Source: a virus
Lineage: Duplodnaviria > Caudoviricetes
DNA: 64,000 bases
IMG/VR virus record: IMGVR_UViG_3300028549_000507
Coordinates: 32,001-96,000 of that record
Reading direction: 5' to 3' (one strand)
The translations under genes and the position numbers were made by a program. This document shows positions 11,054 through 39,567 of the stretch, one piece after another; within the stretch, counting starts at the first letter, position 1, and each line of letters begins with the position of its first letter. The notes beneath the pieces are model-generated. The model was not told where the DNA came from and ran no database searches. It was given only the letters and a program-made list of their open reading frames with translations.

Positions 11054-11087
11054 AAAAAAAAGAAGGATAGCTATAGCTATCCTTCTT
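11052..11087. terminator. Bidirectional intrinsic terminator
   Basis: A10-AAGAAGGATAGC-tata-GCTATCCTTCTT between convergent genes. Confidence 0.75.
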
Positions 11088-11090
11088 TAG

Positions 11091-11180
11091 TTACCACCAA
11101 TCTCTTCTAAAGAGTTTGTAAGTGATAAGTGATGCTACGCATGTAACCGCGATAATGATAAGTTTAGTTGCAACTTTCAT
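11091..11180 (-). CDS. 29-aa hydrophobic peptide MKVATKLIIIAVTCVASLITYKLFRRDWW
   Basis: Below the ORF-track cutoff; AGGA SD, own early-type promoter and downstream terminator. Confidence 0.6.
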   Translation of the reverse strand: MKVATKLIIIAVTCVASLITYKLFRRDWW

Positions 11181-11249
11181 AATGAATCCTATTCCTGGTA
11201 TTCGTACCATAGAAAAATTGTTATAGGATATAGATCAGTCAATCTATTC

Positions 11250-11265
11250 CACTATTAAATATATA
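11250..11265 (-). promoter_or_regulatory. Early-type promoter motif TATATATTTAATAGTG
   Basis: Same motif at 22192, 22645, 26952, 30777, 35224, 37320, 38900 and 43002, always intergenic and upstream of minus-strand units. Confidence 0.7.
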
Positions 11266-35013: not shown

Positions 35014-35130
35014 ACGATCCTCCAATAAAAATAATAATCCGTCAATCAAATGTTTGACTTCTATTTATTTTTTATTGAAAAAAAAAAGTACACATCCGAA
35101 ATTGTGTACAAAAATCATTACACTTATATG

Positions 35131-35190
35131 TTAAAATGTTATGACTAAATCTTTTAAGAAGTTTCTCAAAACTTCGATACACTCTCTCAC
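35131..35190 (-). CDS. 19-aa peptide MRECIEVLRNFLKDLVITF
   Basis: GTG start behind AGGGGA; only ORF between the promoter at 35224 and the terminator at 35079-35109. Confidence 0.45.
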   Translation of the reverse strand: MRECIEVLRNFLKDLVITF

Positions 35191-35296
35191 GATATCCCCT
35201 AGATATTTATTAGTATTGTATTACACTAATAAATATATACATCAAAAAGAAGTCAAAAAATCAATAGTGTAGGGATTTCTCCCTACACTAATTACT

Positions 35297-36368: not shown

Positions 36369-36770
36369 TTAAACCTCTCCGTCTGCTATTGTTTTCAATA
36401 TTCTATATACAACATCCTCCGGAGTATGTCCATCATACTCGTGGATACTAGTCTCATATGAAGGAATTTTAAATACTTCCCAATACTTTATATTGTAATG
36501 GTTAGATATACATCCTGAAGGTAGCTTAGCGCTAACTATAAACATATCATCTTTCCCAAAACAAGCTTCACCATCATGATGCTTCATACTTTTATGAACT
36601 TCATACATACCTTCTGATGCCCATTTATTGAATATCAATGCATTGTAGATAGTTCTAAACACATACAATTCTTCAAAGGTATGATAACCATCATTAACTT
36701 TAGAAGCATCTTCGACCGTTGCGATTTCAATCTTCTCTTTTCCATCATCCTTGTAGAATACAGATTCCAT
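36369..36770 (-). CDS. Conserved phage protein (DGYHTFEELY...YDGH, WDGH-type)
   Basis: DGYHTFEELY, HHDG, ISNHY, YDGHT motifs; start moved to ATG 36770. Confidence 0.6.
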   Translation of the reverse strand: MESVFYKDDGKEKIEIATVEDASKVNDGYHTFEELYVFRTIYNALIFNKWASEGMYEVHKSMKHHDGEACFGKDDMFIVSAKLPSGCISNHYNIKYWEVFKIPSYETSIHEYDGHTPEDVVYRILKTIADGEV

Positions 36771-36846
36771 AATAGCTCCTAATACTGTTAAAATTAGTTT
36801 TATAAGTTTGGATATTATAACTTTAAATATAGAAAACATGTAGCCC

Positions 36847-37050
36847 TCATCGTTTATTTGATAAATGTTTTGTAATTTTCTTACCATAACTACCATACAG
36901 TTTATAGGATTGTATACCTATTTTACAACTGTCGTATGAATTTGATTCACAATTTTTATTATCACAATAGTTAATAGGTACAACTTTTGAGAATGCACTC
37001 GGATTAGAGTATTTATTAACTTTCCTCCATTGAAATTTAGACTTCACCAT
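36847..37050 (-). CDS. Hypothetical protein
   Basis: 67-aa ORF with Cys residues. Confidence 0.4.
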   Translation of the reverse strand: MVKSKFQWRKVNKYSNPSAFSKVVPINYCDNKNCESNSYDSCKIGIQSYKLYGSYGKKITKHLSNKR

Positions 37051-37167
37051 AATGTAAACCCACCCAGTTTTAAATTACATTTGGTTGTTGGATCGTTATT
37101 TAATATATAAACTATATTAGTTATTGAAAAAAAAAGTAGGGGGAGAATTTCTCCCCCAGTATTATGA

Positions 37168-37221
37168 TTAATCTTCATCGCACAATGGCGGAAGAGTAAC
37201 CCAAGTATTTGGATGCAACAT
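37168..37221 (-). CDS. 17-aa peptide MLHPNTWVTLPPLCDED
   Basis: Perfect AAGGAGG 5 nt before ATG; between the promoter at 37320 and the terminator at 37127-37157. Confidence 0.5.
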   Translation of the reverse strand: MLHPNTWVTLPPLCDED

Positions 37222-37422
37222 AGCATCCTCCTTTTCAATATGTCCACTTCCCTTAAATCAGGGGTCAATACATTGATAGACTTTCAATGTATTCAGATGA
37301 TCAATATTGTATATTTCATCACTATTAAATATATAATCTATATGTACGGTTATTACAAAAATAACAATCATTAAACAATTTAATGTGGATATTTAACCAA
37401 AATTTATTAAAAGGCGTTTTAC

Positions 37423-38805
37423 ATGAATGTTCAAGCTATTTCAATCGTACCTCCAACAGAAGCTAAAGATAACTATGCACTGACTCCAGAGCTTTGTGCT
37501 GCTGTATTGGCTAAGTTTTCAAGATCAAATGATGGTTTAGATACAATTATGAAAAATGTTGATATCGAAAACTCTCAGAAATCAGTAGATAACATATTTA
37601 AGTTTATCGATTATGGACATGCTTCTATTGGTGGTCTTACTGGCGGGATTCCGATTGTATTGGACGGAATTTCGATGTTCTTGGCATACAAACTATTCGA
37701 TATTGCACAACTTACAGATGGTCAGGAATCATCTACTCGATATATTACTATGACAAAAGAATCTCTTTTAAGTCCTGAGGAAATGGGTATTGATGATCCA
37801 GAACTTGCGGAACAATATCTTTCGGTTATGGGTGAAGCGTTTGATGTATATAATGAAGTATACAATGATCTCGATAGACTCGCAAAAGAACAACCTGAAT
37901 TAACTCGTATTCCAAAAGACGTAGCTCCTAAAGTAAGAGAGCGTATGCTTAAAAATTACGCATTAGATAGAGCTCGCTATTTCATTCCGTTCGGAACAAA
38001 GACATCTGCAGCATATATTATGACTGCTCGAGTATGGGCTGATACGATTAAACGTCTTGAATCATACGAAGTACCAGAGTTTAAAGAAGCTGCTTCTAAA
38101 ATTCGAGTTGAACTTGAGAAGTATTCTAAAAACCTCATCAGACATAGTCATGCTGATGATAACTCGATTTATGTTGCGAAGATGGAAAGTGATCTTTGGT
38201 TTAATAGTGACACTGAATATGATTCTGAAATTATTGGGTTGTATGATAGTGAACATTATACTCAACTTGATGATTTTAATCATAAAATCGATACAAGATA
38301 TGATGATTATGATGTACTTCAATCCGTTAAAACAAAATTGAACAGATATGCTCAATATTGTCATGAGATTAAGAACCGCACAATCAGATTTCTTATTAAA
38401 GGTATTACTATTGCGGAACTTCGCGACCTAAATAGACATAGATCAGGACATCGTTTCTCGGATCTTAATGTTCGCGGACTTTATATTAGTAAAGAAGTTC
38501 GTGATATGAAGAATCCTAAAATTGATGAGTTCCTTTCAAGATATGTTGATCTTGTTAGAAATATGAAAGATTACTCTTATGGTAATGAGTTGAATATCAT
38601 TCCATATAGCTTCCTCCTAGGAACTCAGGTAGATTTCGAACACACTACTCAGTTGGATAAATTTATCTATGAAGCTGAGCTTAGAACTGGCCTTGGTTCT
38701 CACTATATGTATGCTCACCACTTTACTTGTTTAACAATGGACTTTATTGATAAAAATCCATTGTTTGAAGATTATATCGAACTCGGTACAGCCGAGCCGG
38801 AATAA
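37423..38805 (+). CDS. thyX: FAD-dependent thymidylate synthase, tandem-domain type
   Basis: YGHASIG, QESSTRY, RARYFIP, LRDLNRHR; late-type promoter at 37374-37385. Confidence 0.85.
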   Translation: MNVQAISIVPPTEAKDNYALTPELCAAVLAKFSRSNDGLDTIMKNVDIENSQKSVDNIFKFIDYGHASIGGLTGGIPIVLDGISMFLAYKLFDIAQLTDGQESSTRYITMTKESLLSPEEMGIDDPELAEQYLSVMGEAFDVYNEVYNDLDRLAKEQPELTRIPKDVAPKVRERMLKNYALDRARYFIPFGTKTSAAYIMTARVWADTIKRLESYEVPEFKEAASKIRVELEKYSKNLIRHSHADDNSIYVAKMESDLWFNSDTEYDSEIIGLYDSEHYTQLDDFNHKIDTRYDDYDVLQSVKTKLNRYAQYCHEIKNRTIRFLIKGITIAELRDLNRHRSGHRFSDLNVRGLYISKEVRDMKNPKIDEFLSRYVDLVRNMKDYSYGNELNIIPYSFLLGTQVDFEHTTQLDKFIYEAELRTGLGSHYMYAHHFTCLTMDFIDKNPLFEDYIELGTAEPE

Positions 38806-38910: not shown

Positions 38911-39567
38911 ATGTATGTAAAATTTATTTTAAACATATCAATAGTGACAACTCTTATTAAAGGAATAATGATGGAAACCCAAATTCAAGTATTTAACAGA
39001 CTATGTGCTCTAACGGGAACAGTCACAGTATTGGCTGCTGATGAAATTCTCATGCCTCATTGTGCTGATATTGGCGGAAGAGAAGATTATATAAGATCTA
39101 GTAAAGAAGAATTTTATATAACAAAAGAAAACTACCCAATACATATCGGTAAGACAGTGGTATGCCCTATCGTTCAGAAGAATAGTACAACTAGATTCGC
39201 AGATTCTATTGTAACTCTTACATCTGACAATATCCATAAATATATTACTAATAACTATACATATAGAGAAGCTAAGGATCCTACTGGATATGTTAATCGT
39301 TATGAAGTATTTACTATAAATGCCATGGGTAAATCTTATACAAATATCCTAACCGGAACAGTCGTAACTCATACCGATGCCAATAATGATTCTACAGTAT
39401 CATTCTTGATTGATACCGATATCAGCGATTCTATTTCTGCATATTCTCCTACTATAGATAGGAATTATACGTATGAAGGGAAACAAGGATATTTGAGAAA
39501 AAGAGTTATAATGAATGTTAGAAACATCGATACTCTTGAATTTGAAATCTTTAAAGTGCATCCATAA
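38911..39567 (+). CDS. Hypothetical protein
   Basis: A late-type promoter at 38932-38943 suggests the real start is at MMETQIQ. Confidence 0.6.
   Translation: MYVKFILNISIVTTLIKGIMMETQIQVFNRLCALTGTVTVLAADEILMPHCADIGGREDYIRSSKEEFYITKENYPIHIGKTVVCPIVQKNSTTRFADSIVTLTSDNIHKYITNNYTYREAKDPTGYVNRYEVFTINAMGKSYTNILTGTVVTHTDANNDSTVSFLIDTDISDSISAYSPTIDRNYTYEGKQGYLRKRVIMNVRNIDTLEFEIFKVHP

Follow-up and report, generated by a model that had tools for sequence, protein, structure and literature searches.

A putative minimal early cassette with a 17-codon reading frame in an uncultured AR9/phiKZ-like jumbo phage

The early promoter of the Bacillus phage AR9 has been mapped experimentally and is read by the virion polymerase from the sequence AAATATATATTAT-N6-G; AR9 terminators also work in vivo (Lavysh et al. 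2017, PMC5312081). The PeSL (promoter-early stem-loop) cassettes of the T4-type phages RB49 and phi1 couple repeated copies of a strong early promoter to stem-loops or terminators, and these elements frame small open reading frames (ORFs) that are not essential; the mobility of the cassettes is defined by presence/absence polymorphism and repeat-based recombination (Arbiol et al. 2010, PMC2839356). A precedent at the peptide level is T4 Stp, an early polypeptide of 26 residues. It inhibits EcoprrI, a restriction enzyme of type Ic, and its activity resides mostly in 18 N-terminal residues (PMC3014915). Here we describe a unit of about 190 nucleotides (nt; positions 37335–37127, minus strand) in a 64,000-nt stretch of viral DNA (hereafter the window) that comprises bases 32001–96000 of the 200,251-bp IMG/VR virus record IMGVR_UViG_3300028549_000507 (estimated to be 72% complete, ~32% GC). 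The source is an uncultured AR9/phiKZ-like jumbo phage from microbial mats, with window proteins that include the beta subunit of a phage multisubunit RNA polymerase, NrdD/NrdG, dUTPase and ThyX. We tentatively favour the reading that this unit is a minimal stand-alone early accessory cassette, whose 17-codon ORF would be translated at a throttled rate; as such, it is a modest addition to the early units of this genome and not a new kind of element.

The promoter core of the unit, TATATATTTAATAGTG (37320–37335, minus strand; hereafter P1), matches the early consensus of this phage at 16/16 positions. Position weight matrix (PWM) scoring at a threshold of ≥ 20.7 returns 19 sites in the genome (range 20.7–48.4, the next-best site reaching 17.9), all but one of them on the minus strand and most at the head of single-gene units; P1 scores 31.9. 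An upstream element, tatttttGTAATAA (37350–37363, minus strand), is common to several early promoters of the phage in the 19-site alignment, and the unit carries both promoter marks of the class, the consensus core and an upstream T-run/GTAATAA or TTTAAAT element. The promoter is also the sole sequence that the unit has in common with the rest of the genome. We assign it to the early (virion-RNA-polymerase) type by resemblance to the AR9 consensus: both promoters are extended and AT-rich (TATATATT...), with a conserved G (here a start purine) a few bases downstream, and the motif is over-represented in this genome. Further likenesses to AR9 are the companion late motif, AACA-N6-T(A/G), upstream of the neighbouring genes and the division into discrete operons with intrinsic terminators. 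The two differ in the detail of the consensus (TATATATTTAATAGTG here, in comparison with AAATATATATTAT-N6-G in AR9), and promoter-to-terminator units with ORFs of < 30 codons are not described for AR9 in the accessible portion of Lavysh et al. (2017).

The probable transcription start is the final G of the promoter core (~37320), and all of the features that follow lie on the minus strand. The first 14 transcribed bases (37306–37319) are an inverted copy (86%) of the promoter core (37324–37337), and a weak 5'-terminal hairpin (37296–37320, −2.7 kcal/mol) precedes hairpin 1 (37267–37293), which has a perfect 10-bp stem, AAUACAUUGA/UCAAUGUAUU (DNA AATACATTGA/TCAATGTATT), and a 7-nt loop (−7.9 kcal/mol) and is probably a 5' stabiliser, as in other early units. 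Hairpin 2 (CCCU/AGGG, 37250–37264, −5.1 kcal/mol) is followed by a Shine–Dalgarno (SD) sequence, AAGGAGG (37227–37233), placed 5 nt 5' of an AUG in the ribosome-binding-site (RBS) style of other early cassettes (gaaaAGGAnnnattATG). The final two G of the SD are paired in hairpin 3 (GGAUGC/GCAUCC, 37211–37228, −9.0 kcal/mol), and the AUG itself (37221–37219) sits within the 6-nt loop of this hairpin. The ORF (37168–37221) encodes the 17 residues MLHPNTWVTLPPLCDED and ends in TAA (37170–37168), with hairpin 4 (37166–37202, −9.4 kcal/mol) inside it. The intrinsic terminator (37127–37157) has a stem, GGGGGAGA-aau-UCUCCCCC (DNA 3' arm TCTCCCCC; 37157–37139, −14.2 kcal/mol), that begins 10 nt 3' of the stop codon and is succeeded by UAC and then nine U (37135–37127). 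A preliminary description of this locus, made from the letters of the window, had listed the promoter, hairpins, SD, GGATGC/GCATCC stem with the ATG in its loop, ORF, terminator and U-tract, all of which are present on the minus strand; hairpin 4 was absent from that list. Its proposal that these elements make up a discrete stand-alone early unit, with a promoter and terminator of its own, agrees with what we find. A candidate pseudoknot between the loop of hairpin 3 (UAUGU) and an upstream ACAUA was rejected, the connecting loop being 1 nt and a 5-nt match being expected by chance.

The 17-codon ORF leans towards being a real, or recently real, coding sequence on account of three independent lines: its RBS, the spacing from stop to terminator, and codon usage. 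We estimate that GGAGG-N4-9-ATG would arise by chance in 190 nt of this composition with a probability of ~0.4%; the genome contains 36 such motifs, 25 of which head ORFs of ≥ 28 aa, and the AAGGAGG-N5-ATG of the unit has the spacing and flanks of other early genes. A random frame would have its stop so placed before the terminator in ~7% of cases (our own estimate, which takes 0.076/codon as the stop frequency at 32% GC and counts 21 codons from AUG to stem); in those units of the class with both an RBS-linked ORF and a terminator, the position of the stop relative to the stem varies from 1 nt within it to 21 nt ahead of it, and here the stop lies 10 nt ahead. The frame scores 0.239/codon for codon usage, as against 0.284 ± 0.196 for true frames and −0.25 for stop-free off-frames, only 0.6% of which reach its value; the same value is reached by 9.7% of antisense frames and by 3.9% of the ORF's own stop-free shuffles. 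These three lines speak against the vestigial ORF that the preliminary description had entertained.

The predicted peptide (MLHPNTWVTLPPLCDED) is not hydrophobic, has no hydrophobic segment and ends in an acidic C-terminus; there is one Pro-Pro pair in its frame, which is free of codon runs. A toxin-like product, as once suggested for this locus, finds no counterpart in such a peptide or in its surroundings: the features of a type I toxin–antitoxin locus that we looked for, a hydrophobic membrane-inserting peptide and the signal of an antisense RNA gene, are both lacking. The plus strand within 37127–37335 carries no early or late phage promoter motif from which an antisense RNA could be expected, and its sigma-70-like matches are at chance level.

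We next compare the folding of the unit with that of its class. The unit RNA folds with z = −4.36, better than 200/200 dinucleotide shuffles, and remains under the shuffles (z = −2.7) when the terminator is left out. The preliminary wording of a highly structured transcript is apt in this sense, but the value is ordinary among the early units of this phage: across seven of them z runs from −1.0 to −10.6, with five of the seven at or below −4.4 (genome background −1.06 ± 1.2), and the strongly folded ones include units that encode proteins of 51–77 aa. Strong folding is a class property of these early units and does not distinguish the 17-aa unit. All ~19 units open with 5' hairpins, and most close with a terminator just past a short ORF. 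In most others the first hairpin comes within ~10 nt of the start site; in the 17-aa unit there is a weak hairpin at +1, and a strong 10-bp hairpin only from +28.

A similar comparison applies to the start region. The energy needed to open the RBS is 9.0 kcal/mol, in comparison with 5.7 ± 2.8 kcal/mol for a reference set of 144 phage genes, which places the unit in the top 10% and not as an outlier; one bona fide early unit has a higher cost, 11.3 kcal/mol. The RBS is thus masked above average, and masking of this degree is no evidence of a dedicated switch. The sequestered start of the preliminary description survives to the extent that the 3' end of the SD and the AUG region are partly held in the −9.0 kcal/mol hairpin, a degree of masking that is not exceptional; translational repression, likewise, survives as an opening cost above the mean but one that is ordinary for early units. 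Neither strong folding nor a masked RBS can be taken as special in this phage without comparison to its other early units.

The largest ORF of the class has 288 aa and the three smallest have 29, 19 and 17 aa, the last of these being that of the present unit, which is the smallest of all. One unit, 38915–38804, has the same class of early promoter, no ORF and a tRNA-shaped RNA, and is located 1.6 kb from the 17-aa unit. Two further mini-units accompany it on the minus strand, neither with homology to the 17-aa unit: one at 35079–35239 has an early promoter and a 19-codon ORF with a GTG start (GVG-start) 5' of dut, and the other at 11065–11265 has an early promoter and a 29-codon hydrophobic ORF (MKVATKLIIIAVT...) with its stop 2 nt before the terminator. 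Inverted copies of the promoter core are also seen elsewhere, as a perfect 12-bp TATATTTATTAG/CTAATAAATATA in the 19-aa unit (35239; genome 67239) and at genome positions 54660 and 99336; these may reflect chance in AT-rich sequence, or a promoter-overlapping stem-loop like that of some PeSL subclasses.

A minimal cassette of this kind would work as follows. The perfect-consensus promoter, presumably read by the phage RNA polymerase packaged in the virion, would start an RNA near 37320, which the strong intrinsic terminator would end near 37127 to give a transcript of ~190 nt. The 5' hairpins would most likely guard this RNA from 5'-end-dependent decay, and its one cassette-type RBS would lead to translation of the 17-codon ORF into a small, soluble, acidic peptide, with the −9 kcal/mol hairpin over the 3' end of the SD and the start codon lowering initiation without switching it off. 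The position of the unit, between two genes with late-type promoters of their own and with a degenerate promoter copy after it (hereafter P2), would be the layout of an inserted, probably swappable, accessory cassette; a succession of P1, cargo, terminator and P2 is what insertion of a promoter-bounded cassette would be expected to leave.

That layout, as seen in this one genome, is the basis of an apparent likeness to the PeSL cassettes. As there (PMC2839356), a repeated strong early promoter and stem-loops or terminators frame a small ORF; a promoter copy is found on either side of the insert, here P1 and the degenerate P2; and a stem-loop overlaps or follows the promoter, the start of our predicted transcript being the inverted copy of the promoter core. 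The two differ in that the promoter is of the AR9/phiKZ virion-polymerase type here and sigma-70 in PeSL, and in that the cargo here has 17 codons. T4 Stp shares with the predicted peptide its very short length and early class, which makes it a precedent for function at such a size; there is no sequence similarity between the two, and the function of Stp is known genetically.

Several observations weigh against this reading of the unit as a peptide-encoding cassette. The RBS hairpin puts the ORF among the least accessible 10% of genes; its 17 codons are close to what chance would yield behind an AUG at 32% GC (about 13 codons); no motif can be recognised in the peptide, and the genome has no paralogue of it; and the source pipelines called no gene in 37044–37374, as is expected for 17 codons. 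The relative G001, a 181-kb genome whose RNA polymerase beta subunit is 53% identical, lacks the unit together with the flanking genes thyX and orf156. This absence fits an accessory, non-core element and proves little. Finally, a function at the RNA level is plausible for the unit, because the same class of early promoter drives the ORF-less RNA at 38915–38804.

Of the alternatives, the one that fares best, while still unlikely, is that an early cassette has had its cargo largely deleted, such that the 17-codon frame is a functionless fusion scar and the whole serves at most as a promoter/terminator spacer. What survives would then be the promoter, leader, RBS, first and last codons, and terminator, and a former gene would account equally well for the real-looking RBS and gene-like codons; the near-chance length of the ORF, and the presence of ORFs of < 30 aa in 3 of the ~19 units, sit comfortably with such an origin. 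However, for the native start to have been kept along with a stop codon 10 nt short of the terminator, the internal deletion would have to be in frame or a stop would have to turn up by luck. Neither leader nor terminator has a second copy in the genome, hence recombination between shared frames is excluded as the cause of the deletion. There are also no signs of decay, the promoter still matching at 16/16 positions and the hairpins being intact.

Somewhat less probable again is a folded RNA that is itself the early product (a riboregulator, protein sponge or anti-defence decoy against a host target), with the ORF incidental or secondary. Dual-function small RNAs such as SgrS/SgrT, RNAIII/delta-haemolysin and SR1/SR1P provide the template: like them, the unit would be a stand-alone structured RNA (100–500 nt) with its own promoter and terminator and a small ORF whose RBS is partly structured. 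Its size is typical of small RNAs, it has four stable hairpins (z = −4.4), and its promoter class is that which drives the tRNA-shaped RNA 1.6 kb off and, in G001, precedes at least 330 nt of sequence that forms two long hairpins and lacks a long frame. The unit departs from these small RNAs in that no seed or target emerged among the 144 phage translation-initiation regions, where the best duplex (−34.0, compared with −31.2 ± 2.5 for shuffles, 15% of which are as good) gives no complementarity signal above background, and in that Rfam homology is lacking, with no match even at E ≤ 10. Rfam likewise yields no match at gathering thresholds in the window (the best sub-threshold match over the unit has 22.1 bits, vs 56), and a tRNA/tmRNA search returned none. 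What is left single-stranded is the A-rich RBS region and not loops that are rich in C or resemble a seed. It is also most improbable that a perfect SD with its AUG is there incidentally, and protein-coding cassettes of this phage fold strongly too.

The placement of the unit 5' of an operon brings to mind leader-peptide attenuators (trpL, pyrL and the 17-residue MgtL), in which a short ORF likewise stands just 5' of an intrinsic terminator. Applied here, P1 would be the real early promoter of the genes orf67 to orf84, and translation of the leader ORF would modulate read-through of a leaky terminator, by way of a ribosome positioned on the stop codon, 10 nt ahead of the stem, or of an alternative pairing between the ORF and a terminator arm; we regard this as improbable. 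The operon's own signals are nevertheless poor. Its early-like promoter P2 (TATATATTAAATAACG, 37109–37094, minus strand), which follows a CAATAA junction within 37094–37126, is a degenerate sequence with 3 mismatches; it scores 11.1 by PWM, whereas the 19 good sites reach ≥ 20.7, and over 26 nt it shares 85% identity with P1. Its late-type motif (AACAACCAAATG, 37078–37089, minus strand, final base 27 nt 5' of the orf67 start codon) is a weak match (PWM 10.2), under the 10th percentile (12.0) of 36 gene-proximal sites. Because both of these signals are weak, early expression of orf67 to orf84 may depend on read-through from P1. The UAC between stem and U9 may make the terminator leaky, and the second mini-unit (19 aa) is similarly placed 5' of dut. 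For AR9, early and late promoters in combination are described as keeping expression continuous (PMC5312081).

The alternative pairing itself can be seen in the minimum-energy fold of the nascent RNA, in which CUCUUCC(GCC) of the ORF (the 5' arm of hairpin 4) pairs with the terminator 5' arm GGGGGAGA. It forms only with the terminator 3' arm withheld (whole RNA −45.0 vs −58.3 kcal/mol with the terminator), and the terminator hairpin (−14.2 kcal/mol) is much stronger. The leader differs from known attenuators in having no runs of regulatory codons, and in the promoter-like copy and late motif, at canonical distance, that lie between the terminator and orf67. Such control also needs ribosomes that trail the polymerase, a coupling that is doubtful for a virion RNA polymerase, and the other early units are plain gene-plus-terminator cassettes.

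A translation-sensing early switch would join the peptide and attenuator ideas in one dual-function RNA that both encodes a host-directed 17-residue peptide and gates read-through into the six-gene operon; we give it only a slim chance. The gating would operate via the RBS hairpin and the competition between ORF and terminator arm, and the 19-aa unit at dut would do likewise. If true, this would be a new way to give genes with late promoters a metered early dose. Least credible by far, and rejected as probably spurious, is a small two-segment hydrophobic protein from a frame of 60–74 codons (37268–37044, minus strand) with the hairpins inside its coding sequence, which is open across AT-rich DNA (a chance of ~1–2% by our own estimate), has two hydrophobic stretches and ends in ATGGTGA overlapping the orf67 start, but has no usable RBS (its ATG abuts the SD at zero spacing, and its TTG and GTG starts have no SD) and an off-frame-like codon score (−0.388), derives its hydrophobic stretches from the T-run and terminator, crosses the terminator and two promoter motifs, and was called by no source pipeline.

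Returning to the favoured minimal cassette, we consider its relatives. Proteins 94–100% identical to those of the flanking genes exist on other contigs (near relatives P0121, P0122, P0124, P0126 and P0127); among them, P0122 corresponds to thyX, P0124 to orf156 at 94% identity, and P0126 to orf67, with identical copies on two further contigs. Megablast and blastn against the phage collection gave no similar DNA, and exact-pattern and protein-guided scans of viral, metagenome and genome contig collections that do not include the records of the near relatives gave only the distant and non-syntenic L002 and L003. A covariance model built from the single sequence of the unit finds only itself in its own genome and nothing in G001 or a second genome, G002. 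In G001 the promoter variant TATATATTTAATWWTG is over-represented (13 matches, vs 1 for the reversed control), and the motif is succeeded by a 5' hairpin and then by SD and ATG, as in this phage.

Some further observations came from these scans. On the minus strand of one G001 locus (L129, G001:C1:125414-128429), starting at position 483 in the reversed orientation, an early-type promoter has at least 330 nt beyond it. Two long hairpins with near-perfect stems of 14 and 13 bp occur in this stretch, which is without a long open frame and is possibly an early non-coding RNA. The distant contig L003 (JACCDX010112996.1) has tRNA-like sequences at 1310–1400 and 1545–1655 with a common 3' end, GGTTCGAATCCTGTCCTGACTGCA, and this pair flanks a 41-aa hydrophobic ORF. 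A promoter-motif scan of viral contigs returned chance matches or a repeat protein only, and no nucleotide relatives: the promoter 16-mer recurs in unrelated viral contigs (L013, L009 and L083; IMGVR_UViG_3300005264_000124, _000097) inside a ~150-nt tandem repeat of a protein (...Y-I/V-F-N-S...), a pitfall for motif searches.

The genes on either side bound the unit. The first gene of the six-gene downstream operon is orf67 (36847–37050, minus strand), outside the unit; the operon, orf67 to orf84, includes orf156 (WDGH domain, PF25311) and orf84 (DUF1653). The mechanically delimited ORF at 36369–36896 (minus strand) has 175 aa; the 94%-identical relative P0124 begins at the equivalent of ATG 36839 (156 aa), which is probably the true start here also, giving 156 aa. 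In the divergent direction, thyX (37423–38805, plus strand) has its late-type promoter, AACAATTTAATG, at 37374–37385 (plus strand, PWM 17.8); this promoter lies outside the unit, and the unit RNA is therefore not antisense to the thyX leader. The 460-aa ThyX has its closest homologues (~50% identity) in Fibrobacterota/Chitinispirillales, which may point to the lineage of the host or to where the gene came from.

Both thyX and orf67 have an AACA-N6-TG motif at the usual distance, and no AACA-N6-T(A/G) motif occurs inside the unit on either strand. Across genes the motif is found upstream of 49/143, vs 7.3 expected, mostly 25–37 nt from the start codon. It is ~7-fold enriched within 100 nt upstream of genes, with an extended consensus of AAACAT-n-T-n-A-n-TG, and depleted in the window as a whole (79 sites, vs 108 ± 10 in shuffles), which suggests selection against stray late promoters.

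In phiKZ, predicted small ORFs and one predicted small RNA failed closer analysis or northern blot (PMC8244752), and given that record a confirmed early micro-peptide would be of some interest. Should the 17-residue peptide indeed be produced, few early products put forward for a jumbo phage would be as small, and the peptide would be a candidate for a compact host-takeover or anti-defence factor, like T4 Stp. Taken with the 19-aa unit and the ORF-less tRNA-shaped RNA, the unit suggests that this class of early promoter serves very small products that gene callers miss, and that annotation of such phages would be better guided by promoters.

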